Source: Cyanidioschyzon merolae
Taxonomy: Eukaryota
Reading direction: 5' to 3' (one strand)
Assembly (NCBI GenBank): GCA_000091205.1
Contig: AP006485.2
Length of the DNA: 64,000 nucleotides
In this document: in pieces, positions 1-50,300 of the stretch
How positions within the stretch are numbered: position 1 is the first letter of the stretch
How the letters are laid out: each line of letters opens with the position of its first letter
The notes under the pieces: model-generated
The model's input: only the letters and a program-made list of their open reading frames with translations
Told to the model about the DNA's origin: nothing
Database searches by the model: none
Translations under genes and position numbers: made by a program

Positions 1-1096
1 TCAGAATGGACTTGTGCTCGACCAGCATCACTTGGCCATCGAAGGTCGTTGTCGCTTCAACGGGATCGTTCTCTGCACAGAGCACCTGGCCCGAATGAAT
101 ATCGTCTTCCTCGACGCCTTTCACAAGCAGCTTGACGTTGTCTCCGGGCTCAGCGAGCGGCACCTCCTCGGCATCCATTGTGATGCTCGTGACATGCACG
201 ACAAGTCGCGGTGGCATGAGCAGTAGCCGATCACCGCTGCGAATCGTACCGGCTTCGACTCGGCCTAGGATACAAACGCCCATATCTCGAAATCTGTCCA
301 CGACAGTCATGCGCACCGGCATATCCAGCGGCCGCGGTGGTAGTTTCAGTGCATCGAGCACTTGGAGCAGCGATCCGCCTTTGTACCATGCACACGTGCT
401 TGGATGAACCGGTTCGCGCAAATTCTCACCTGTGAAGCCGCTGACAGGTACCCAGCTGACCTCCTGCGGCCGATATCCAATCTGCTTCAGGAAGGGTGCC
501 AGTTTGTCGCATATCTCCCGAAAGCGCTCCTCGCTCCACTGCACGGTGGGTTCATCCATCTTGTTGATGACGACGATGAGTTGTCGCACACCAGCCGTTT
601 TTGCGAGCATAGCGTGCTCGCGGGTCTGTCCGCCTCGTTCGAAGCCGGCCTCGAACTCTCCCTTGCGGGCCGAAATCACCAGTATAGCCACATCAGCTTG
701 TCCGGTGCCTGAGATCATCGCCGGCACATAGGCCTTGTGGCCAGGCGCATCAATAATCGTGATATGTTTCGTTGCGGTTCGGAATGAAGCTACGCCATAA
801 TCCGTGGTTTTTCCTTTGCTTCGTTCCTGTTCGGTGAGATCGAGCGCCCAAGCGAACTTCCATGACTCGCGACCTTTGCTCTTCGCCTCCTTTTCGTATT
901 TCTCCAACGTGCGCTCGTCGAGGTTGCCAGTCAGGTAGAGCAGGTGGCCGCACAGTGTCGACTTGCCGGCGTCTACGTGTCCGATGAACACAATGTTCAA
1001 GTTTCGGACCCGTTCTGGTGACTCGGATCCTGGTCCTCTGCCGTTGTCGTCGAGGTGCAGCTCCTGCACACGCTCCGCAACTTGAGACGCTGCCAT
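1..1096 (-). CDS. eRF3/HBS1-family translational GTPase (EF-1alpha-like, closest to eRF3); 3' end runs off window
   Basis: Reverse-strand translation from ATG at 1096 reads MAASQVAERVQELHLDDNGRGPGSESPERVRNLNIVFIGHVDAGKSTLCGHLLYLTG...SWKFAWALDLTEQERSKGKT...IIDAPGHKAYVPAMISG...ISARKGEFEAGFERGGQTREHAMLAKTAGV...INKMD, open through position 1. G1/G3/G4 motifs and the GQTREHAMLAKTAGV block match eRF3/GSPT. Not in the ORF track because it has no downstream stop inside the window. Confidence 0.8.
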   Translation of the reverse strand, partial: MAASQVAERVQELHLDDNGRGPGSESPERVRNLNIVFIGHVDAGKSTLCGHLLYLTGNLDERTLEKYEKEAKSKGRESWKFAWALDLTEQERSKGKTTDYGVASFRTATKHITIIDAPGHKAYVPAMISGTGQADVAILVISARKGEFEAGFERGGQTREHAMLAKTAGVRQLIVVINKMDEPTVQWSEERFREICDKLAPFLKQIGYRPQEVSWVPVSGFTGENLREPVHPSTCAWYKGGSLLQVLDALKLPPRPLDMPVRMTVVDRFRDMGVCILGRVEAGTIRSGDRLLLMPPRLVVHVTSITMDAEEVPLAEPGDNVKLLVKGVEEDDIHSGQVLCAENDPVEATTTFDGQVMLVEHKSIL

Positions 1097-1708
1097 AGAT
1101 AGTGCCTTTGAACAAAGCTGCTCTAGTCGAACGGTCAAAATGAGAATCCCGAGCGCTATCCGTACGAGCGCTGCTCTGTGGTCCGACCACGTTCTCTTCC
1201 TTCGCTGCACGGAAGAGTGTCCGGGCACGACGCGAAGCGAGGAATGCTTAAACTTCTAAGCACGGAATTTTCGTCTATTGTAAATAGAAGAGTATTTTAT
1301 AGAGCTACAATTGCGATGTGTAGTCTGGGTTTGAACGCAAAAGCACCGCTCACAGGTGATGCCCTGAGCGAGCCAGCAAGCTCTGATGCGAGCGTCTTCT
1401 TGTTGCTCGGGTCCTCAAAGCCTTGTACTACACTAAGCGTACGTACCAAGCAGTTAGTTCTATACCTGGAGTTCCACAGCAGCGCGAAGCGCTAACAAGA
1501 CCCTGCCGGACAAGAAAGTCGCCTTAATAGGTCGCTGGACAAAGATTGTCGCCGTGGCGAGGCCGCGCGGGTACGCACTCCAACTCCCAACAAAAGCTTT
1601 TATGCCAGTCTCTGTTCAACGGCTGTGTTGCTGCGCTTAAGCCCTAACAGGGATCACTGACTCGTGATCCTGGGTAGACTCCGTTCAAGACGTACCTTGC
1701 CGTGGGGT

Positions 1709-3115
1709 ATGTTTGTGGGACTTCTCACAAGACGCAATCTACGACCCTTGCAGTCACTCGCCCGGAAACAAAGCCAGTTGGACACGTTTCGGAGCCGCAT
1801 GTCTTATTCGACTTTCTCTGGAGTGCCTGAGGCACCAAAGGACCCCATCTTAGGTCTGAATGAGCTTTTCCGTGAGGACCCTTCACCCCTTAAAGTAAAT
1901 CTGGGCGTCGGTGCGTACCGCACGGAAGAGAACAGGCCATACGTGCTCGGTGTTGTGAAACGAGTCGAACAAGAACTAGCAAATAATCCGAATACCCTGC
2001 ACGAGTATTTGCCGATCGAAGGCTTACCTGAATTTCGCTCCCTGTCAGCTCGCCTCGTATTTGGGGAGCGCTCACCGGCGCTCAAAGAGCAGCGAGTTGT
2101 CTCGCTACAAAGCCTGTCGGGAACAGGCTCGCTTCGCCTGGTCGCAGAGTTCCTCAGCAAGTTTTACCAGCGCGGCGCAGTCTGTTATCTGCCGCGCCCG
2201 ACCTGGGGGAACCACTGGAACATATTCCCAGCGGCGGGCATAAAGTGCCGCGAGTACCGGTATTACTCAGACGAGACCCATGAGGTCGACATCATCGGTC
2301 TCCTGGACGACCTAACTGCTGCACCGTCGGGCTCAATCGTGCTCCTTCACGCGTGTGCACATAATCCGACGGGAGCAGACCCTTCCATGACACAGTGGCA
2401 AGAGATCTTGGACGTCATCCGAAAGAAACAACATTTTCCGTTATTTGACTGCGCTTACCAAGGCTTCGCCTCGGGCTCTTTTGAGCGCGATGCGGCAGCT
2501 GTTCGCTTGTTTGAACGCGCTACAGTACCGGCTTCCGAAGCGGATGGTGCCAGAGAGCGACCCATGGAGATGGCGGTGACGCAGTCGTTTGCGAAAAATA
2601 TGGGACTTTACGGAGAGCGCGTCGGCGCAGCTCATATTGTCTGTGCTGCTCCGGCAGTAACGCAAGCCGTGCTCAGCCAAATGAAGCAGATAGCGCGCGG
2701 GCTCTATTCGAGTCCACCGGCACATGGTGCGACGATAGCAGCGAGAATTCTGAAAGATCGTGCGCTTTTTGCGGAATGGGAAACCGAAGTGCATGTGATG
2801 AGTAGTCGTATTCTACGCATGCGTCGTGAGCTCTTTGAGGCGCTGCATGAAAACAAAACGCCCGGAAATTGGGAGCATATTCTCTCCCAAATCGGCATGT
2901 TCAGTTTCCTGGGGCTGAGTGCGGAACAATGCCTTTATCTCCGGGAAAAGTACCATATATATATGACGACGAATGGGAGAATATCAATGGCCGGTCTCAC
3001 TTCAGACAAGGTACAGTACCTAGCGGATGCTATCAGGGATGCAGTCGTGCGTGAGGCCGAAAAGTTTGAGCATCAATCCGGCATTCAAGCTGCGCTAAAC
3101 AGCGGTAAGATATAA
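1709..3115 (+). CDS. aspartate aminotransferase (class I aminotransferase) with ~30-aa Arg-rich presequence
   Basis: Track ORF 1664..3115 starts at GTG; the first in-frame ATG is at 1709 (MFVGLLTRRNLRPLQSLARKQSQLDTFRSR), followed by MSYSTFSGVPEAPKDPILGLNELF...GVGAYRTEENRPYVL...SFAKNMGLYGERVGA, which are hallmark AAT blocks. Continuous ORF with no intron. An alternative start is the ATG at 1799 (cytosolic-type). Confidence 0.9.
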   Translation: MFVGLLTRRNLRPLQSLARKQSQLDTFRSRMSYSTFSGVPEAPKDPILGLNELFREDPSPLKVNLGVGAYRTEENRPYVLGVVKRVEQELANNPNTLHEYLPIEGLPEFRSLSARLVFGERSPALKEQRVVSLQSLSGTGSLRLVAEFLSKFYQRGAVCYLPRPTWGNHWNIFPAAGIKCREYRYYSDETHEVDIIGLLDDLTAAPSGSIVLLHACAHNPTGADPSMTQWQEILDVIRKKQHFPLFDCAYQGFASGSFERDAAAVRLFERATVPASEADGARERPMEMAVTQSFAKNMGLYGERVGAAHIVCAAPAVTQAVLSQMKQIARGLYSSPPAHGATIAARILKDRALFAEWETEVHVMSSRILRMRRELFEALHENKTPGNWEHILSQIGMFSFLGLSAEQCLYLREKYHIYMTTNGRISMAGLTSDKVQYLADAIRDAVVREAEKFEHQSGIQAALNSGKI

Positions 3116-4555
3116 GAGATAAATTTTGGCGGAGTACACACTGGTTTGGTGTTTTGCCACACGGCAACGGAACGAAGCACCGTTCCCGTCACGTCCAGCT
3201 AGACCGATCATCAGGTGCCGTGGAGCCATGATTCGTGAACGGATGCGTCGGTTTTGGTTGCCAGCGTCTACAGCAAAGGCGCGTAACGACGCGAGCGAGA
3301 GCGTCGACCCTGCATCCCGTGTGTGCACGGGACGTCGCGCGCATCTCAGGTGCCCTGTGGCAGCGAGTACCATGTAGTCAACCCCGAGGACTTGCTCCAT
3401 AGATCCTAGCCGGTAACGAATACTGCAGTTAGCGCCTTGCGTGGACCACAGCTCGCGTCTGGGAGAAAAAATCTTTCATGAAAGGTGGTCACAGAAACTA
3501 GACGCTGGTGAGCTTTCTGAATAGTCCACGCCTTTCTTTCATAGAATAGATGCTTCCAGAGAAGCGAATGACTTCTTTTGCTTGCATGCCACCAACAGAG
3601 TTCAATGGATTTTTCGTATGTTTGCAGTGAATCATTACCAACACCAGCGAAAGCACCGCGAGCATCACCATCATCACCCATATTGTAATTATCATCATCA
3701 TCATCATCACCATTAGCAGCAGCAGCAGCATGCACCTTCATTGCAACCAAGGGTGCCCATTGCCTCCAACAGAGCTGCCATTTCTTGCACAGCATGCGTG
3801 ACGCGCATGCGTGGCGGCGCAGCGCTGGCGGATCAGTTGCACGCATGCGATGCGCCATATCGTCGTCAGGGCCCTACATCTCCATCATGGACAAAAAGGT
3901 AAAGCGATACAGTCCAACACCTCCGTCAAGAACAAAAAAGAACGTAAGAATGTGCTGAGCGTTGATGGACGCTCGGTCCGATACCGATGACAATCACGAT
4001 ATCAGGGATCGATGGTCAATGGAAACCTTTTGACATCAGAAAAAAATTGCCTCATCGCCGATTGCGGTGTCGATCGACATCCACTTGTCTTTTTTTTCAA
4101 GATATATACATTTATGTCTAGATAGAAAGTGGCGTTCAGCGGCCGCGTAGCAGGGCGTGCACGCGCGCGCCGGCGCATCCACTCCCGTCGCAGCGATGCA
4201 TCGACGCTGCGGCGCGATGGACGGCATCGCTCGAGAAGCGTCAGTTAAGCGCCGGCTAAGTCCACTGGGCGCTCTGGACCTGAACGCTTCTATGGTCTTT
4301 GTGCCGATCACATCGGTTCAAGAGGCAAAGCATATTTTTCGTCATAGAAATAGCAGATCAACGAGTCAACTTTGTGCTTGTCGGTTCGCCTTGGCTCGGG
4401 CTTTCGTGTCTACGCAAGATAAAACGTGCTTTGTACCTGGTAGACCGTGTGTGCTCAAGGAAAAGTCAGCGCACACCGGCACTCTGAGACGCTCTCGGTT
4501 ACAGCGGGGGTTCTGTTGCGCTCAGGTCGAAGCAACAACGGTACATTCTGATTCG

Positions 4556-6205
4556 ATGAGGAAAACGAACTCAACTTCAGTCATGGGGAACGGCGCTGTC
4601 GGGGCGCTGACGGGGAGAGTTCTCGTTCCCGAGAAGCTCGACAGCGACGGCGTAGCGCTGCTCGAGAGAGCCGGTCTGGAAGTAGTGTGCAAGTACGACT
4701 TGACAGAAGATGAGTTAAGCGCTGTTCTTGGTGACTTTGACGCACTGATCGTTCGATCCGGTACCAAAGTGACGCGTTCCCTTCTCGAGAAAGCGAACGC
4801 TACGCGTCTGCGTGTCATCGGACGGGCCGGCGTTGGTGTCGATAATATCGACCTGGCGGCAGCCTCCGAACGGGGAATCGTTGTTGTGAACGCACCTACG
4901 GGCAACTGTATTGCTGCTGCTGAGCATACGGTTGCGTTGCTTCTGGCGCTGGCCCGCAACATTGCCGCCGCGGACGCTACAATCAAAGGTGATCAGTGGA
5001 ATCGGAATAAATTTGTAGGCGTTTCCCTTGTGGATAAGACCCTTGGTGTATGTGGTTTTGGAAGAATTGGTCGAGAGGTTGCACGTCGCTGTCGGGCGCT
5101 GGGAATGCGTATATTGGCCTACGATCCCTACTGTGCTGTCGAGGTGACACGCGCCGTCGGTGCCGAGCTCTGCAGCTCCCTCGATGAACTTCTTCGTGTT
5201 TCAGACTTTGTTACCGTGCACATGCCCCTGACAGAGTCCACGGAAAATATGATCGATCGGAATGCGCTCTCTAAGTGCAAGGATGGAGTGCGGATTCTGA
5301 ACGTCGCCCGCGGCGGCATCGTCGACGAGGTCGCTCTGTTGGAGGCGCTGGAATCCGGCAAAGTCGCAGGAGCCGCGTTAGACGTTTTTGTTCAGGAGCC
5401 TCCACACAAATATCCCGGAAGTCCATCAGAGAAGGTTGCGAAACATCCCCGGGTGGTCGCGACACCGCACCTGGGAGCCAGCACTGTCGAGGCACAACTC
5501 GATGTGGCCCTTGAAGTAGCCGAGGCGGTCATCACAGCGCTGCGGGGTGACTTTGCGCCAACAACAGTGAATGCTCCATCGCTTCCTTCGGAGATGCTTT
5601 CGACTTTGAAGCCAGTTGCCGAGCTCGCAAAGGACTTGGGAAAGTTGGCGGCTGCCTTTAGTGACCGCATTCACGAAGTGAGCATCACATACGCCTTTCG
5701 TGATGCTGAGAAGCGGAATGCCACTCGCTTTCTGCGCGCTTCTGTGCTTCAAGGCCTCCTTGGGCAGACCTCGGCAGTGCCGATCAATTACGTGAACGCA
5801 GATGTGGTTGCGGAGCGTCGAGGCATCACCTGGACGGAGGTTTTACTCTCCAGCATCGAAACCAGCGATGCAGAGTTTCTGCGTTTGGAAGTGAATCGCC
5901 ATGTCTACGAAGGCCGTGTAACTTCGGGGATGCCTCGGGTAACGCGCATCGACAATTTCGATATTGACATTTGCCTGAACGGCCGTGTACTCGCGTACGA
6001 ACAAATCGATCGACCGGGCATGATCGGTCTCGTAGGCTCTATTCTAGGTGATGCTGGAGTGAACATCAGCTTCATGACACTAGGTCGCGATGACAAAGTC
6101 GGACGGGCGCTGGTCCTCCTCGGGGTGGACTCAGAGCCGGAACCGTCAACGCTCGATGCCATCGCATCCAAAATTGGGTATCGTCCGCGAATGATGTTCT
6201 TCTGA
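4556..6205 (+). CDS. D-3-phosphoglycerate dehydrogenase (2-hydroxyacid dehydrogenase plus C-terminal ACT domain); the ORF is open from 4157, so an N-terminal extension is possible
   Basis: VLVPEKLDSDGVALLE...GRAGVGVDNIDLAAASERGIVVVNAP...GFGRIGREVARRCRALGMRILAYDPY...ATPHLGASTVEAQ, plus a C-terminal ACT-like MIGLVGSILGDAGVNISFMTLGR. The track start at 4157 is GTG; in-frame ATGs lie at 4196, 4217, 4556 and 4583. The enzyme core begins near 4600. The upstream 120 codons are Ser/Arg-rich and low in acidic residues, so they could be an organellar transit peptide. Confidence 0.9.
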   Translation: MRKTNSTSVMGNGAVGALTGRVLVPEKLDSDGVALLERAGLEVVCKYDLTEDELSAVLGDFDALIVRSGTKVTRSLLEKANATRLRVIGRAGVGVDNIDLAAASERGIVVVNAPTGNCIAAAEHTVALLLALARNIAAADATIKGDQWNRNKFVGVSLVDKTLGVCGFGRIGREVARRCRALGMRILAYDPYCAVEVTRAVGAELCSSLDELLRVSDFVTVHMPLTESTENMIDRNALSKCKDGVRILNVARGGIVDEVALLEALESGKVAGAALDVFVQEPPHKYPGSPSEKVAKHPRVVATPHLGASTVEAQLDVALEVAEAVITALRGDFAPTTVNAPSLPSEMLSTLKPVAELAKDLGKLAAAFSDRIHEVSITYAFRDAEKRNATRFLRASVLQGLLGQTSAVPINYVNADVVAERRGITWTEVLLSSIETSDAEFLRLEVNRHVYEGRVTSGMPRVTRIDNFDIDICLNGRVLAYEQIDRPGMIGLVGSILGDAGVNISFMTLGRDDKVGRALVLLGVDSEPEPSTLDAIASKIGYRPRMMFF

Positions 6206-7099
6206 GGTGTTGTATACGTTGCAAAAGATGTAAGTGATGTACCATAGAAGCCGAGATGATCGCCGATTACAAACAAGGGTGTTCCAAACCCAAGGCGATC
6301 ACAAATCGAGATACGATCCATGAATCCAAGGCGAGCTCCATCGTAAATGCACCCGTTTTACAAGTTCATGTACTGGTCGCTCTTGCATTCGCGTGGTGTC
6401 CGAATGCTCTATATTGAGCAACTGCTTTCCTTTCTCTATAATGTTGGAAATGCCTGGATGACCAGATGCTCTGGGTTGCACGGCTGCTGTCGGTAACCGG
6501 TGAGCAGACGCTTGGCCTGGAAGGTGAGCGCTGCGGCCTCGGTGGCAGCGGAGCGCGTTCGCAGGTACAGTGCGAGCCCAGTTGCAAAGAATTCCAGGTT
6601 TTCTTCATGGGAGTCCGATGATCCTAATCGCATTTCCCCCGGTAACGCTCACACTACTGGAACATACGCAGCGGAGCGCCCGCACCGACGGTTCGTCGAC
6701 ATCGTCTTCCAATCAACGACGAGTCTTCAATTTGTCTGCTTTATTTGGGCAAGCAGCCTACCTCTTTCTCGCTAAACATGCTATTAAGAAGTATGCACGT
6801 TGACTTGTCGATCAAAACGACCTGGTTAAAACAACACCCAACCTATTTATGAAAGATGCGAAGCGTTCCGGCACCCGCCGTAAACCGCCAGCCCGGTGAC
6901 CAGCTTCGCTTGCATGGCACCCCCGGTACCAAGACCTTGACTCGACGAGTTCCTACGCCGCATCCCGAGCACCCAGAACGTGCCCTGATCGGTAGCCAGT
7001 GCCTGAGCAGCGACGGAATACACTTGGCACAGCTCCAAACAATCCAAAAGACGAGTCCAGTGCCCGGGGTGCTGCTTCTACGCCTCAGCGCGAACCGCT

Positions 7100-8488
7100 C
7101 TACTTCTGCAAGTCGATACGGCTATAGCGCGCTCCTAATCGTGTGGCTTTCTGATAGAGATCCGCAAAAGCATTCCCGAACCCCTTATCTCCCAAGTTGC
7201 CCAGAGTGTCTACCGCTTTCGTTGCGTCTGCATCTGCAGCGATTGAGAATTCTGTTGCATTCTGTGCTTCGTGCCGATGCAGGCGGCTTGCAAGTTCTCG
7301 CAGAAAACGAGTGCTGAAGCGGTCCTTGCCGAGCGTCAACGAACGCACGGAGGTGTTCACGGCCACTGTCCTCGAGGCAGCAGGATCGCTGCGCGCTCGA
7401 CCGTACGTTACGGTGGCGATGTCCTCTGAGAGAATCGGCCCTGTTGACGAGGAACGCTCACCTCGGGCGGCAGTGCCTCGTGACGGGGCGGACGACCCCA
7501 GCGACTCTTCGAGACGCCTCAGTTCGCCAAGCGCTCCGATTATAAGGAGGCCTGCACGCGTTTGCTGCTCCCTATCATTCCTGGACACAAGGCCGGATCG
7601 CGTCAGAAGCACGCGCATGTCTTCTAGTCCCAGAGCGGCGTCGTTGTCGCTGGCATTGTCCTCGATGCCGTGCAGGAAGCGCCAGTAAGCCGGAACATCC
7701 TGAAGACGCTGCCAAACGAGTTGTTGTCTTTCTGCCGGTGCGTCCTCTCTGCCGTTCTGGACGCGTAATCGCGGACCTCCAGTAAGCTCCATTGCCACGA
7801 CGCCAGCGTAGGCTATGGTATCGGCCCAGGATACCTCTTTTATGAAAGGACGAATAGGCTCCAATGCCTTCAGCGCTTCTTGTAACCCCGATAGACCAGG
7901 TGCGCTGGCAGTCTTCCTAGGGCCGTTCTCTTGCAGCTTCGCCAAAACGTATCGAATAGAGGCGTTGCTACCCCCGACCTGGGTACTTTCGTCGAAGGTG
8001 AAGGCATCGGCAAGCGCCAAGCGTACGAAAGGTTCCAATAAGTGCGGCGACTGGGATAGAACGTTTCTTAAGTTCTGTTTCAGCCGGTTCAGGGTTGAAA
8101 CTCTGATTTCCTTATCTCCGTACCGGTTGACATCAAAGTCCACAAACGCGTGGGCAATCGGAAGCTGTCCGTCCCGAAGCGTCTCGGTTTGCGCGAGAAG
8201 GCAACCAGTGGAGAGCGCAAGCAGCGTGCGCAGGAACGCACGTCGAGAGGGCTCTACTGCAGACCGCCAACACAGACGCTGCGTTTGACGAGTGCCCGTG
8301 AAACGAAGCCGACTCGCACGCCATAGACGTATGCTATTCCGTCCAGTGCCTTGACCAAAGCTTGCTGATGAAGAACCGGTACGGGTCCAGTTACCACATG
8401 TGAACGCAAACGCCGGTTCCTGTGTCCGAAAAAGTGCCTCTTGGTGGCTCACGGCTGACGAGCACTCGAGCGGCGAGGCCTTCTCCAT
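7100..8488 (-). CDS. class-I (APX/CCP-type) peroxidase-fold protein lacking the distal and proximal His; N-terminal region carries a twin-arginine (Tat-like) motif; TL29/APX4-like
   Basis: ATG at 8488 verified. Core ...FVRLALADAFTFDESTQVGGSNASIRYV...LQEALKALEPIRPFIKEVSWADTIAYAGVVAMELTGGPRLRVQNGREDAP... aligns to the APX/CCP blocks (RLAWH.AGT..GG..G; L.P....P.IS.AD...AGV.AVE..GGP.....GR.D). It reads RLALAD instead of RLAWHS and LLTRSGLVS instead of LSGGHTLG. N-term has SRRAFLRTLLALSTGCLLA (S-R-R-x-F-L-K-like plus a hydrophobic stretch) after an S/T-rich region. Confidence 0.6.
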   Translation of the reverse strand: MEKASPLECSSAVSHQEALFRTQEPAFAFTCGNWTRTGSSSASFGQGTGRNSIRLWRASRLRFTGTRQTQRLCWRSAVEPSRRAFLRTLLALSTGCLLAQTETLRDGQLPIAHAFVDFDVNRYGDKEIRVSTLNRLKQNLRNVLSQSPHLLEPFVRLALADAFTFDESTQVGGSNASIRYVLAKLQENGPRKTASAPGLSGLQEALKALEPIRPFIKEVSWADTIAYAGVVAMELTGGPRLRVQNGREDAPAERQQLVWQRLQDVPAYWRFLHGIEDNASDNDAALGLEDMRVLLTRSGLVSRNDREQQTRAGLLIIGALGELRRLEESLGSSAPSRGTAARGERSSSTGPILSEDIATVTYGRARSDPAASRTVAVNTSVRSLTLGKDRFSTRFLRELASRLHRHEAQNATEFSIAADADATKAVDTLGNLGDKGFGNAFADLYQKATRLGARYSRIDLQK

Positions 8489-8958
8489 AGACTCGAACAG
8501 CTCACTCCTTCAGAAGCGACCTGTAGTACCGAACCCTGCCCTGGTTCACTGGTGAAAGAGCACCGCTGTTCCAGAATACCTGAAGGCGCCGCTGCGAAAA
8601 GCGTTCGATGTTGCGTGGTATGCAGTGAACGGCGCGCTCGAGTTCTACAGTGTGTCTGCCGCTTAGCCGCGGTGCAGCGTATGCTCCATAGCGCTCATAC
8701 TTCGCCCAGTATACTTGTAGGAGGTTCAACTGAACCGACCAAGACGCCCTTAACCGGCTGACGTATTCGAAAGCGTTTCCGAGCGTTGCTCCAGAGGTCA
8801 GAGTTGGCTACTGCAGGCTGCGTTGCGATCTGGAAGCAGGGCTGCTTCCAGGTGCCCGAGCTCTTGTGCTTCATTATCTAGCAAGAGCCTTCACTCCGAC
8901 GCATCTTCTACTGTCAAGTAGCTCTGGGGTTTTTGGCAACTGTAGTGCCTCTGTGTCG

Positions 8959-44680: not shown

Positions 44681-44803
44681 TGCGGCAGGTGAGACTCGAA
44701 CTCACGACCTTAGGATAGCTTTCTTGGGCTCGTGTTATGAGACCTACGCGCTGTGGCACTGAAACTGAACTGGACAAAGTTTAACCAACTGCGCTACTGC
44801 CGC
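44681..44803 (-). tRNA. elongator tRNA-Met (anticodon CAU) with a 19-nt intron at the canonical 37/38 position and an additional ~30-nt insertion in the D-loop
   Basis: Minus-strand sequence reads GCGGCAG TA GCGC AGTTGGTTA[AACTTTGTCCAGTTCAGTTTCAGTGCCACA] GCGC G TAGGT CTCATA[ACACGAGCCCAAGAAAGCT]A TCCTA AGGTC GTGAG TTCGAGT CTCAC CTGCCGC A. The 7-bp acceptor stem is perfect, with G1:C72. The D-loop is canonical (A14 G15 ... G18 G19 ... A21). U33 and A37 are present and the T-loop is TTCGAGT. The stem/loop arrangement is collinear with human elongator tRNA-Met, including the 31-39 U:U. Confidence 0.6.
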
Positions 44804-46750: not shown

Positions 46751-48115
46751 TCATGGATGAATAGTATCTTTGAATTCAAAGAACGAGTCATGCATGCGAA
46801 TGAAAGAGTACTCCTCGCATGACCCACAACACCAGTATAAATTAGGTTCTTTGTGAAAGATAGCGAACCCGGCGTGCATAAAACCTCGGAAAAACTCATC
46901 CAATTCTGGGATAGAGGCGAAACCCGCGTGCACTTCGATAAGGACTTGATTCACGTGCCGCAGCGCGTGCCAGGTTCTCAAGGCATATTGCTCTTCAGAG
47001 CTGAGTTCACGTTGGCTCCGTCCTTGGCGAAGGAGCTTGTCGGCTGCCCGGAACGCTCCCAAGAAAGAGGTGAACTCACCACCCTCGATATCGATCTTGA
47101 GCACCTCGACGACGTTTGGCAGCTCCAGGTGACCCAATCCAGACATGATCTCCGCCAGCGAATTGTTGCTCTCAGCCGGGCCAAGCGGCCGGCGAAAAAA
47201 ACGAACGCGTTCCAGAAAGCTCTCGGAGTGCATCGCAGATGGTGGCGATGATGTTGGGTCAAAGACGAAAAAATCGCAGTCCGGCAAGCGTTCATGAAGC
47301 TTCGTTTCGAAACTGAAATCGTCGTTGCTACCAAAACTGTAAACAATGCAGCGATACGGGAGCCTGAGCTGCTCACGAAACAGCCGTCCCCGGTTCAGGA
47401 TAGCAGGTGGGTCGCACACCCATTTGCCACCGTCTCCGTTGTTACCGATCCGTTCCTCTAAGGTACAGCCGATATCCGGTTCCCAGTTATTGTAGAAAAA
47501 AACCGACGGGTTTGGTTCGAGGGTAACGGTCTGGCGCTTTCGCTGACGTTGTGACCGAATCCTCCGTTGGGCCCAGAGCGCGTCCGACTCGCACCAGAAG
47601 CCGAGCGACTCTTTCAGTGCTCGCGTGTCCTTCGAAGTCACTGGTAGGGTCCGGTCCCAAATCTCCGTCAGGGTTTTCGCGTTGCGCAAAGAGCTCCCAC
47701 GACGAAGAGCCCTCGACACGGAGCGAACGCAGCTGTCATCCACGGCGGGAAGATCCGCGCGCTGGACACCACTAGAGCGTCCGTTGAGAACACTAGTAGC
47801 GCGGTATATTACGATAAGAGCATAAATAAGAAAAGTCAAAGCCCCTGAAGCGATGCACGGTTTTCGCCACGTCATGCCGGCCACTGAAAACAAACGTCTT
47901 TCAAAAGAAAAACGTTGCCGCCAACGGTGTACAGTAGTGACGGGAAACGCGCCGTAAGCAAATCGTCTCCAGCTGAGGTGCAGACGCATCCCAGTCTTTT
48001 TCGACCGTCCACCTACTACGTCTTTCATTTTCTTCTCATATAATTCCACTTTGAGAGGTCGCCCCACAGGTTCTCTCGTGTCGAATCTGGAGGTCTTTTC
48101 TCCAGCACCGCACAT
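46751..48115 (-). CDS. type II membrane protein with an FkbM-family (Methyltransf_21) methyltransferase-like domain
   Basis: ATG at 48115 verified. TM ALTFLIYALIVIY. Motifs CIVYSFGSNDDFSFE (GxG-like), CDFFVFDPTSSP (FkbM ...afEPnp-like) and LKIDIEGGEF (FkbM lKiDvEGaE). Confidence 0.55.
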   Translation of the reverse strand: MCGAGEKTSRFDTREPVGRPLKVELYEKKMKDVVGGRSKKTGMRLHLSWRRFAYGAFPVTTVHRWRQRFSFERRLFSVAGMTWRKPCIASGALTFLIYALIVIYRATSVLNGRSSGVQRADLPAVDDSCVRSVSRALRRGSSLRNAKTLTEIWDRTLPVTSKDTRALKESLGFWCESDALWAQRRIRSQRQRKRQTVTLEPNPSVFFYNNWEPDIGCTLEERIGNNGDGGKWVCDPPAILNRGRLFREQLRLPYRCIVYSFGSNDDFSFETKLHERLPDCDFFVFDPTSSPPSAMHSESFLERVRFFRRPLGPAESNNSLAEIMSGLGHLELPNVVEVLKIDIEGGEFTSFLGAFRAADKLLRQGRSQRELSSEEQYALRTWHALRHVNQVLIEVHAGFASIPELDEFFRGFMHAGFAIFHKEPNLYWCCGSCEEYSFIRMHDSFFEFKDTIHP

Positions 48116-48119
48116 CTCC

Positions 48120-50300
48120 TGATATTGATAGCGACATTAAAGTCTCGGTTCACAAACTCCATGCGTTTCTTGCCATCTTTGGTTGTACTTACTAATACAA
48201 GTAGCCCACGAACGTTCGCCCTCCTTTCCATTTGCTCCTCCGTCAGCGGTCCGTACTTTGCTATTTCGTCGGGGCTCCTCTGGCACTTTTCCATCTCGAT
48301 CCTTTGAAGTGTACAACACAGTTCATGGTGTGTATACGATGTTCGGAACTCATCTACAGGTATTGTAACTAACCGGTCTGCACACCCCTTGTACGTTCTT
48401 GTCGTTGGAGCTGGTGTACACTCTTTTTCAGACGCCTAGCGCCCTGCTCCGTATGCTACTACCAGCCTTTGACTTTCATCCTCTTTGAAGGCACTCAGCT
48501 GATTGAAAAAGTTCGCGAACGCACACTGCTTGCCAACGTATAGATTCATACGCAATCGAGACCACCGGGGCTTTGTATACTCTTTCCACAGTGCCTCCCA
48601 ATGACCAACGCGAACTTTCATGAACTCCCGAAAAGCTTGAAAGTCGGCTCCGCGGCTCGTCACCTCGCCCAAAGCTTCCAGGTGCTCTTTCATTCCTGCA
48701 TTCCATGTCTCGATTTCCTTCCACGCATTCTTTATACCGGATTCTCGATAGTATCTCGCTCTCGAGAACCTCAAAAGACGCATGTCTTTCTGAATGAAGT
48801 TGCCGTCTGGACCATCTTCCGCACGCCTGGGTACAGCGATGGCTGTGACATTCGTATTCCCAGGGTCCGCGCCCACGACAAAGTCGTTATACTTCCTTTT
48901 CTGTGTGGCACAATCCGCCTCCTTCTCATCTTCATACCTCGTCACGTCAACGACAACGTCGTCATCCTGCACTTCCTGTGTCGCAGGATCCGTCTCTTTG
49001 TTTTCTTCATGCTTCGTCATGGGCGAAGCCGAAGGCTCGATAGGACGATACGCCCTCAAGCGCTTGCAGTCTACACAAATGGATACTCCATCGGTTTCGA
49101 TCATCCCCGTGAATACCCTCTGCTTGCTAATTTTGAGACGTTTGAAACTGAAGATATTCTTCCAGTACGTCTCCCGGTTTTCACCGGAGAATTCCTCCCT
49201 GCTGGCATTGAACTCGGGACTGATCTACTTCATGATGCCGTAGACGACTCTGGAGCCGATATAAACAAAATGGGGCTGTATGTTCCATAACGGGATGACG
49301 TAGAAGCGCTTCACCATTAGGAAAGCCCTCGGTCTCTCGCGCTCTTCATTTTTTCCTCACTCAGCTTCATCTCCGTCTTGCGTTCGAGTTTTCGGTCCAG
49401 AAACACGAAATACCGCAGAATGAGGCGATAGTGTCTTTCCATATCTTTTTTCAACTCTGGTACCTTTTCTGCTGGATTCGCCAGCCCAAAAACTGCATGG
49501 TGCTCTTGTATTGCCGCACGGATTACAGAAGCTTCATTCGTGCTCCTGCGTGGCGCCTTCTTGTCACCAAATTCGACCTCATCTTCATGCTTACGATCAT
49601 TCGTGATGCCTTGAAAATCGCACATTTTCCATCGCGAGATAGACCCGGGTAGAGTGCAAACACGGCGCGTATCATGAAACGTTCGAGGTTCACTGTCAAA
49701 TGGTGTTTCAGGTCCGTGATTTACTTCATCGCCCCGTATATGTAGATATTTCCGTCACCGCTGTATCGATTACCCTCGAAGGGGAATTCCACGAAGATTT
49801 CGTGGAGAGCATGCACTAGCTCATTTTCCCTCCGCATACCCCCTGTACCAAGCATCAGTTGACGAATAAACGTCTTGTCGAAAAACTCGTCCGAAACCTC
49901 GACTCTTTCCATGTGCGTCACATCGCGATGCATCGCCCTCACCAAATGCATTAGCCCTGACGATGCGTTTATAATACTTTTGGAGTACGAATCGACACAT
50001 GGTCTCTGATAGCGTCTCGCAAATTTTGCTTGTACTGATCCTTGGTATGTCAAAGAAGACCAGCTTTCACCACCATCTCGTCGCACAGGTGTCTTTTTCG
50101 CCGCCTTCGACGTTGGACCTCCCCTTTCGGTCCTTTTTCTTCTCTTCATTTTCTTCTGGACTCGGTACTGTTTTTTATTTTTTTCTGGCAGCCTGCGACA
50201 CTGGGCCTCCAGGATTATGTACTTGCTTTTTCATAACTTTGCTTTTTTAGTTTTTTTAAGAAGAAAGCCCTTTGAACGCTTCTGGTACACACTGCGAAAA
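48120..50300 (-). other. AT-rich island (~2.2 kb) with three co-oriented minus-strand ORFs of no clear homology
   Basis: Base composition is visibly lower in GC than the flanking sequence. ORFs 50149..49721, 49625..49317 and 49104..48436 lie head-to-tail on the minus strand. Confidence 0.5.
48436..49104 (-). CDS. ORF with a RuvC/YqgF/A22-type RNase-H-fold N-terminal motif (G-x-D-P-G-x-x-N...A)
   Basis: ...[21 protein letters not shown]... compared with E. coli RuvC MAIILGIDPGSRVTGYGVI. Downstream acidic catalytic residues could not be assigned by eye. The ORF ends ...LVVAYGAGR*. Confidence 0.3.

Follow-up and report, generated by a model that had tools for sequence, protein, structure and literature searches.

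Background

The ascorbate peroxidase (APX) relative TL29/APX-L is a lumenal protein, associated with photosystem II (PSII), which lacks peroxidase activity and binds no heme and no ascorbate (PMC8069737; PMC10669542). APX-R is an active heme peroxidase (PMC8069737; PMC10669542), and a twin-arginine signal with a hydrophobic stretch and an A-x-A site behind it (RR-h-AxA type) has been reported for Chlamydomonas APX2, a member of the APX-R group (PMC10669542). According to the 2021 survey of Lazzarotto et al., in which APX-R and APX-L were defined, the red alga Cyanidioschyzon merolae has one APX and no APX-R, APX-L or hybrid, and the diversification of APX is placed at the base of Viridiplantae, the sparse red-algal sampling being flagged (PMC8069737); a 2023 paper likewise found no indication of APX-R in red algae. 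Here we describe a gene found on the minus strand at positions 7100..8488 of a stretch of 64,000 nucleotides of C. merolae 10D (assembly GCA_000091205.1, contig AP006485.2; the whole stretch is called the window). Its product is, with a probability of roughly 0.65, a heme-less protein of peroxidase fold exported to the thylakoid lumen by the twin-arginine translocation (Tat) pathway, with a non-enzymatic scaffold or auxiliary role. The idea of a lumenal dead peroxidase is itself already known from TL29. The gene had also been deposited already, under a wrong name, and it belongs to a red-lineage family missed by the 2021 survey (PMC8069737). An earlier note, made from the letters of the window, had proposed a TL29-like protein here and a host with a primary plastid; the latter holds, the window being nuclear DNA of a red alga.

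Gene and predicted protein

At these positions the open reading frame (ORF) scan of the window gave a single uninterrupted ORF of 462 amino acids (aa), whose translation is identical to C. merolae 10D BAM79074.1 / XP_005535360.1 / UniProt M1V6M4, named "cytosolic ascorbate hydrogen peroxidase" in GenBank and UniProt. Its start is the first ATG downstream of an in-frame TGA, from which it is 5 codons away, and no further Met comes before M233. An alternative start removing the presequence is ruled out, given this upstream stop and the position of M233 inside the domain. Variants differing at 1-5 residues are present in many hot-spring metagenome assemblies. The gene is divided as follows.

7100..8488, minus strand: complete coding sequence, 462 aa plus the stop at 7100-7102, supported by identity to the database entries
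8249..8488, minus strand: presumed stromal transit peptide, aa 1-80, from its composition and the plastid-type presequences of homologues
8147..8248, minus strand: twin-arginine lumen-targeting domain, aa 81-114, with SRRAFLR (8228-8248), h-region and c-region to A112-H-A114
8054..8146, minus strand: family-specific mature N-terminal motif FVDFDVNRYGDKEIRVSTLNRLKQNLRNVLS, aa 115-145, from alignments
7685..8080, minus strand: part recognised by PF00141 (Pfam), the distal, N-terminal half of the peroxidase domain, aa 137-268
8006..8023, minus strand: degenerate distal site RLALAD, aa 156-161, from alignments
7742..7783, minus strand: APX-like structural block TGGPRLRVQNGRED, aa 236-249, kept in the red-lineage family where TL29 has a divergent insertion
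7583..7609, minus strand: LLTRSGLVS, aa 294-302, the counterpart of APX FGKAMGLS, which lies ahead of the proximal helix, from alignments
7508..7549, minus strand: true proximal-helix equivalent LLIIGALGELRRLE, aa 314-327, with His163/Thr164 absent (or His163 = Leu320) and Arg172 = Glu327
7355..7477, minus strand: low-complexity insertion after the proximal helix, aa 338-378, predicted local distance difference test (pLDDT) score below 55
7103..7354, minus strand: C-terminal helices of the peroxidase fold, aa 379-462, colinear with APX FDNSYF...LSELG and modelled with high confidence

Peroxidase fold

A match to the peroxidase profile PF00141 was obtained at E=1.7e-15 (57.9 bits for a cut-off of 27). 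The hidden Markov model check suggested in the earlier note is thus significant, but the match covers only profile positions 2-120 of 237, that is, the N-terminal half. The best relatives among solved structures are cytosolic APXs, at ~1e-10, TL29 (3RRW) being found at 2e-7 and, with a profile, at 2.7e-9. An AlphaFold2 (AF2) model built on a family alignment of 44 sequences reached a pLDDT of 86.2 and a predicted template modelling (TM) score, pTM, of 0.86; an earlier run on a 7-sequence alignment, at a pLDDT of 48.5, was discarded. When the model was submitted to Foldseek, APX and cytochrome c peroxidase (CCP) were matched at E ~1e-6 with target-normalised TM scores of 0.69-0.71, and the sole disordered stretch of the model lies at mature residues 224-264, which are the low-complexity insertion of aa 338-378. 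As modelled, the protein has the two-domain all-alpha class I fold in full, with the C-terminal half unseen by Pfam, and the peroxidase fold claimed from the letters is borne out by profile, model and structural matches alike.

Distal and proximal sites

At the distal site, R156-L157-A158-L159-A160-D161 stands for R38-L-A-W41-H42-S of APX. Arg38 is kept, Trp41 is replaced by Leu159 and His42 by Ala160, exactly as had been read by eye (RLAWH to RLALA), and the RLALAD motif is invariant across all Cyanidiales homologues. The proximal site had been placed wrongly: LLTRSGLVS was taken for the replacement of LSGGHTLG, which is a misalignment, as it matches the upstream FGKAMGLS segment and the proximal-helix equivalent is L314-LIIGALGEL-323, within one continuous helix over aa 306-331 in the AF2 model. 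His163-Thr164 falls in a 2-residue gap in the MAFFT alignment, and His163 pairs with Leu320 in the hhalign alignment. No His is found either way, so the absence of both catalytic histidines stands with both aligners. The ascorbate-binding Arg172 aligns with Glu327.

On the published APX signature (Arg38, Trp41, His42, His163, Arg172) only Arg38, as Arg156, is present and the other four are lost, while on the APX-R signature (Arg38, Phe41, His42, His163, no Arg172) the C. merolae protein is without Phe41, His42 and His163. The proximal His, the heme iron ligand of the peroxidase superfamily, is absent. Cys is missing from the mature part, which has two Met and, at positions 149, 273, 404 and 406, four His, not one of them conserved even within Cyanidiales. 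Furthermore, a residue table of the red-lineage family shows positions 38, 42, 169 and 172 varying freely, as would be expected of a pocket freed from catalytic constraint. With no proximal ligand, no distal His or Trp and no ascorbate Arg, and with this drift at four positions, heme-dependent peroxidase chemistry is very unlikely, and judging from the sequence the C. merolae protein is most likely a non-heme protein devoid of peroxidase activity.

Presequence and predicted lumen targeting

The first 80 residues contain 24% Ser+Thr and 11 R+K against 5 D+E, with a net charge of +6 and an isoelectric point (pI) of 11.1. A secretory signal peptide was ruled out, the N-terminus not being hydrophobic. 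Residues 81-114 read SRRAFLR-TLLALSTGCLLA-QTETLRDGQLPI-AHA and include a near-perfect S/T-R-R-x-F-L-K motif. The best 12-residue Kyte-Doolittle mean of the h-region TLLALSTGCLLA is 1.88, and A112-H-A114, where the thylakoid processing peptidase presumably cuts, ends 1 residue ahead of the conserved mature N-terminus. The S/T-rich region, Tat motif and h-region recognised in the earlier note are therefore all found, and they are conserved in orthologues. Indeed, in each of the four Cyanidiales sequences with an N-terminus, the mature part starts with an invariant sequence, and SRRAFLR, h-region and AxA immediately precede it. The N-terminal motif FVDFDVNRYGDKEIRVSTLNRLKQNLRNVLS is invariant in Cyanidiales, and its residues Y123, G124, D125, E127, Q138 and R141 reach a conservation of at least 90% over 43 family members.

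Over the family as a whole the RR pair is found in 47 of the 68 members whose N-terminus is intact, and it invariably lies shortly upstream of the conserved start of the mature protein. Homologues of secondary-plastid algae begin with an endoplasmic reticulum signal peptide with an ASAFAP-like junction, followed by a transit peptide and then by RR-h-AxA, which by its sequence is the tripartite presequence expected for the lumen.

A subgroup with the mature N-terminus AKV[YF]FDTD.YGDKE is RR-less and has retained the hydrophobic stretch and the A-x-A site (P0046, P0053-55, P0062, P0063, P0070, P0071, P0073, P0075, P0079, P0080, P0083, P0085-88, P0093, P0098, P0101, P0106, P0132). These sequences suggest a switch from Tat to Sec-type lumen import inside one family.

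The signal is also carried by APX-R-type relatives possessing the heme ligands (P0152/P0310 Musa APX6, P0129, P0130, P0149), which show RR, hydrophobic stretch and A-x-A; in banana APX6 it reads SSGRRRLILTVLIPIMF...AKA. Since APX-R proteins carry a Tat signal too, it is not specific to TL29, and from these sequences Tat targeting was probably ancestral to the whole APX-R / APX-L / red-family branch.

A red-lineage family

An exhaustive profile search returned 452 relatives, 101 of them at E<=1e-10; a search with the full-length family alignment had returned only 8 proteins, low-complexity words probably being to blame. The hallmarks of the family are a lumen signal, the mature N-terminal motif V.FD..RYGDKE[IL][KR]..T.N..KQ.LRN, the distal motif xLA[ILV]xDAL[ST]Y[DN], a retained APX-like GGPR..GR.DA block (GGPR..GRED in the C. 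merolae protein) and an insertion of 30-60 residues after the proximal helix, acidic in most members. This insertion is D/E-rich in the secondary-plastid members and has no counterpart in APX. The C. merolae protein has the N-terminal motif, the distal motif and the insertion and is thus a member. Other members were found in the red algae Cyanidiococcus (Cyanidiales), Galdieria yellowstonensis, Porphyridium purpureum (annotated as "L-ascorbate peroxidase 2, cytosolic") and Pyropia vietnamensis, the raphidophyte Fibrocapsa japonica, the xanthophyte Tribonema minus and the chromerid Vitrella brassicaformis, and none of the 20 labelled clusters of the family belongs to the green lineage.

A distance-based neighbour-joining (NJ) tree of 77 sequences and 274 columns (200 bootstraps; chlorophyte and charophyte APX-L absent) recovered the whole family as monophyletic at 98%, with the Cyanidiales at 100%, the red-algal subclade including the C. 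merolae protein at 68% and the secondary-plastid subclade at 80%. Blocks of at least 30 residues are invariant among Cyanidiales having 45-62% overall identity, and an acidic residue is aligned with Asp208 in 13 of 13 red-algal members. The strongest conservation lies in the family-specific N-terminal motif and in structural residues, a pattern of constraint in keeping with a role in binding or as a scaffold; as far as conservation can tell, interactions would most likely take place at the invariant N-terminal motif. No description of the family was found in the literature that links TL29 or APX-L to red algae, diatoms or C. merolae, and the gene is not identified in a preprint on light adaptation of C. 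merolae.

Comparison with TL29, APX-R, APX and KatG

For the comparison, the sequences of TL29 (Arabidopsis At4g09010) and pea APX1 were verified against 3RRW and 1APX. The C. merolae protein shares with TL29 the class I fold, the Tat-type RR-h-AxA signal, a Leu at position 41 (aliphatic in the family), an aliphatic residue replacing Gly45, the loss of Arg172 and, in the MAFFT alignment, the 2-residue gap at His163-Thr164, present in 9 of 9 TL29. Between Leu151 and Gly166 the spacing is 14 in all 19 APX, APX-R and hybrid sequences, as against 12 in 9/9 TL29 and 40/40 family members of the secondary-plastid group. Most other red algae have a value of 13, and Cyanidiales one of 18-20, the latter being due to a lineage-specific insertion of 6-8 residues lying upstream, just after the GL anchor.

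There are also differences from TL29. Both Arg38 and the GGPR..GRED block, at which TL29 has a divergent insertion, are retained in the C. merolae protein. It further has the FDxxRYGDKE N-terminal motif, which TL29 lacks, and an insertion of 40-60 aa at the very site of the TL29 deletion. The mature size is 38 kDa compared to 29 kDa for TL29, and TL29 is known from streptophytes whereas the family of the C. merolae protein comes from the red lineage.

Several comparisons speak against a close kinship. The grouping of the red-lineage family with TL29 received a bootstrap of 23%, in a tree free of chlorophyte and charophyte APX-L. With BLASTP, TL29 came out as the class I branch of lowest similarity, at 32% over 105 aa (E=7.5e-11), against 38% over 128 aa (E=4e-16) for APX-R and 36% over 124 aa (E=3e-15) for APX. 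The family-versus-single-sequence hhalign score was 165 for TL29 against 169, and clade versus clade the red algae scored 138 with TL29, 262 with APX-R and 250 with APX. TL29's own best hhalign partner is the secondary-plastid subgroup (186 against ~151). A trimmed search with the family and TL29 together was swamped by angiosperm TL29, and no chlorophyte or charophyte APX-L or hybrids were gained to break the long branch of TL29. At a deeper level, the red-lineage family, TL29, APX-R-like proteins and hybrids are split from classical APX/CCP at 77-83% bootstrap.

By the published rule an APX-L has none of Arg38, Trp41, His42, His163 and Arg172 (PMC8069737). The C. merolae protein, with four of the five replaced and Arg38 kept, scores as a "hybrid" under the same rule and for this reason is not filed under APX-L. 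By analogy, the best reading is a protein which works like TL29 and is not classed as an APX-L member. Hence the name TL29/APX4-like is right for the architecture (Tat signal, aliphatic 41, proximal His lost) and unsupported for the family membership, given the 23% bootstrap, the kept Arg38 and the family's own hallmarks; likewise the phylogeny that had been called for yields a distinct family (98%) but no firm TL29 grouping.

In sequence, the C. merolae protein is overall closer to APX-R and APX than to TL29. APX-R (Arabidopsis APX6, Chlamydomonas APX2, Musa APX6 = P0152) is the highest-scoring relative outside the family (hhalign 262-264, in addition to the BLASTP values above) and resembles it in being plastid-targeted, in the RR-h-AxA signal and in the absence of Arg172. 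APX-R keeps Arg38, Phe41, His42 and His163 in 8 of 8 sequences, whereas residues 41, 42 and 163 are lost here. Compared to classical APX (pea APX1 1APX; soybean 1OAF/2VCF), Trp41, His42, His163 and Arg172 are lost, a bipartite presequence of 114 aa and a large insertion after the proximal helix are present, and Pfam recognises only the N-terminal half. The KatG C-terminal domain (1U2J) is heme-less; it is part of a bacterial/fungal bifunctional enzyme and not a free-standing lumenal protein, and it has no specific sequence relationship to the C. merolae protein.

Three traits are shared with TL29, namely the deletion in the proximal helix, an aliphatic residue at position 41 and the Tat signal, and for this reason a common lumenal ancestor is suggested. 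We hold it only as a tentative view, at somewhat less than even odds, that the red-lineage family and TL29/APX-L descend from one heme-less, or heme-losing, Tat-exported lumenal protein that existed before the red/green split.

Proposed role and alternative explanations

The preferred explanation is as follows. The gene would encode a nuclear-encoded precursor with a bipartite presequence, of which aa 1-80 would act as transit peptide and bring the protein into the stroma. There the protein would fold, and then cross the thylakoid membrane by Tat by means of the signal of aa 81-114. Cleavage after Ala114 would release a basic lumenal protein of ~38 kDa (pI 9.3) starting at FVDFDVNRYGDKE, which would have kept the class I fold and lost the residues that hold and activate heme. 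Its role would be that of a non-enzymatic lumenal scaffold or auxiliary protein, as has been reported for TL29 and for the heme-less KatG C-terminal domain. The ORF, the fold, the residue losses, the conservation of the signal and the membership in the red-lineage family have been established here, and we infer that the protein resides in the lumen, lacks heme and serves as a scaffold. In favour of this explanation, the Cyanidiococcus orthologue A0A7J7IFJ8 is steadily transcribed and not induced by light, with trimmed mean of M-values (TMM) expression of 85 in the dark, 82 in low light and 103 in high light, unlike the genuine Cyanidiococcus APX, which rises ~40-fold, from 219 to 8510 (PMC10272599).

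A number of observations weigh against this explanation. Arg38 is invariant in Cyanidiales. Non-cyanidialean red-algal members (P0024 and P0025 of Porphyridium, the Pyropia cluster P0027/P0029, P0028 and P0032) have retained His42, and at APX position 160 they share another conserved His, in the motif [WYM]HGA.G. These members are without Arg38, Trp41 and His163, and both histidines have been lost in the Cyanidioschyzon lineage; from their sequences, this part of the family may still bind heme. Tat export would also be expected of a cofactor-loaded protein. Regarding the location, TargetP called the genuine Cyanidiococcus APX "thylakoid lumen" (PMC10272599), and its authors preferred the stroma, the C. 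merolae homologue being stromal in Arabidopsis (PMC10272599). Given that this lumen call was overridden, sequence-based lumen prediction can mislead in Cyanidiales. Finally, the scaffold or PSII role is drawn solely by analogy from TL29, with which orthology is not demonstrable.

It is unlikely, on the evidence of the pocket, that the protein is still a lumenal redox enzyme, holding heme or another cofactor through non-canonical ligands after insertion in the stroma, hence its Tat route. Such an enzyme would account for the retention of a complete and well-packed peroxidase fold, for the invariant Arg38, for the acidic residue at the Asp208 position and for the His42 and His160 of the other red algae, and the lumenal Chlamydomonas APX-R does bind heme and copper (PMC10669542). 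However, no His, Cys, conserved Met or Tyr lies at or near the proximal position of the C. merolae protein, the distal His and Trp are both lost, positions 38, 42, 169 and 172 vary freely across the family, and TL29, which shows the same pattern, binds no heme (PMC8069737).

Also improbable is a plastid protein that is never exported and resides in the stroma or at the thylakoid's stromal face, its RR pair being an unused relic. The TargetP conflict over the genuine Cyanidiococcus APX and the loss of the RR pair in a family subgroup would agree with it. On the other hand, anciently diverged lineages share RR, h-region and AxA as one conserved unit whose distance to the mature N-terminus is constant, and the RR-less members retain a hydrophobic stretch and A-x-A of Sec-type look, so that lumen targeting appears preserved. 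Furthermore, a signal of this type is present in TL29 and APX-R, and TL29 has been placed in the lumen by experiment.

That the protein is a cytosolic ascorbate peroxidase, as the databases have it, is hardly credible. The name stands in GenBank and UniProt for BAM79074.1/M1V6M4 and for the Porphyridium homologue, and the Cyanidiococcus orthologue has been treated as a cytosolic APX (PMC10272599), but four of the five APX-defining residues are missing and the presequence of 114 aa carries a Tat signal. Moreover, both deposited models of the Cyanidiococcus yangmingshanensis orthologue are faulty. KAF6001882.1 (= A0A7J7IFJ8; P0005) has 319 aa with a spurious N-terminus of 130 aa, its SRR is buried at ~residue 140 and it ends after ~aa 270 of the domain, while the model of CCYA_CCYA12G3404 (P0003) begins within the Tat signal (MFLRTML...). 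The "cytosol" call rests on the wrong 319-aa model, and the faulty A0A7J7IFJ8 is the cause of the "cytosolic APX" label (PMC10272599).

A decaying, functionless, pseudogene-like APX copy, to which the lost catalytic residues and the low-complexity insertion, modelled with low confidence, might point, is practically dismissed by the intact ORF of 462 codons, the very few substitutions among near-identical environmental variants, the invariant blocks among otherwise diverged Cyanidiales, the retention of the family across red algae, stramenopiles and chromerids and the transcription of the orthologue.

Significance of a probable lumenal dead peroxidase in the red lineage

With the heme-less lumenal protein as the preferred explanation, the annotation of the C. 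merolae gene, "cytosolic APX" in the databases and its orthologue analysed as such in PMC10272599, is corrected; the genuine APX complement of these extremophilic red algae would then come down to a single protein, and a cytosolic APX would be missing. An APX homologue that has a lumen-targeting signal and lacks the catalytic residues occurs across the red lineage, being present in Galdieria, Porphyridium and Pyropia as well as in stramenopiles and chromerids. As C. merolae is open to gene targeting by homologous recombination, this simple single-copy system would allow a direct test of the function of lumenal dead peroxidases, a question for TL29 since 2009. Should the common ancestor be true, a non-enzymatic "dead peroxidase" would have persisted for over 1 billion years in the thylakoid lumen of nearly all eukaryotes with plastids, which would imply a conserved role in oxygenic photosynthesis, probably at PSII, and the published origin of APX diversification at the base of Viridiplantae would be overturned.

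Neighbouring genes and other features of the window

The genomic neighbours of the gene encode an aminotransferase, a phosphoglycerate dehydrogenase and a subunit C of the V-ATPase, and are uninformative on its function as they lie in a eukaryotic nuclear genome. The D-3-phosphoglycerate dehydrogenase (4157-6205, plus strand; 2-Hacid_dh, PGDH_inter and ACT domains) has an ORF reaching ~150 aa upstream of its first domain, and this extension may be a plastid transit peptide or an overlong call from a GTG start. Further along the window, no ORF of at least 250 aa is found between 48116 and 53307, and positions 48001-50000 have the lowest G+C (0.489) and the strongest GC skew (-0.18) and AT skew (-0.15) of the window. 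A tRNA gene with a CAU anticodon at 44681-44803 (minus strand), missed by ARAGORN, was matched by Rfam at 48.4 bits and contains two insertions, of 32 nt in the D-loop and of 21 nt in the anticodon loop. Multi-intron tRNA genes are known from C. merolae, and this one fits among them.

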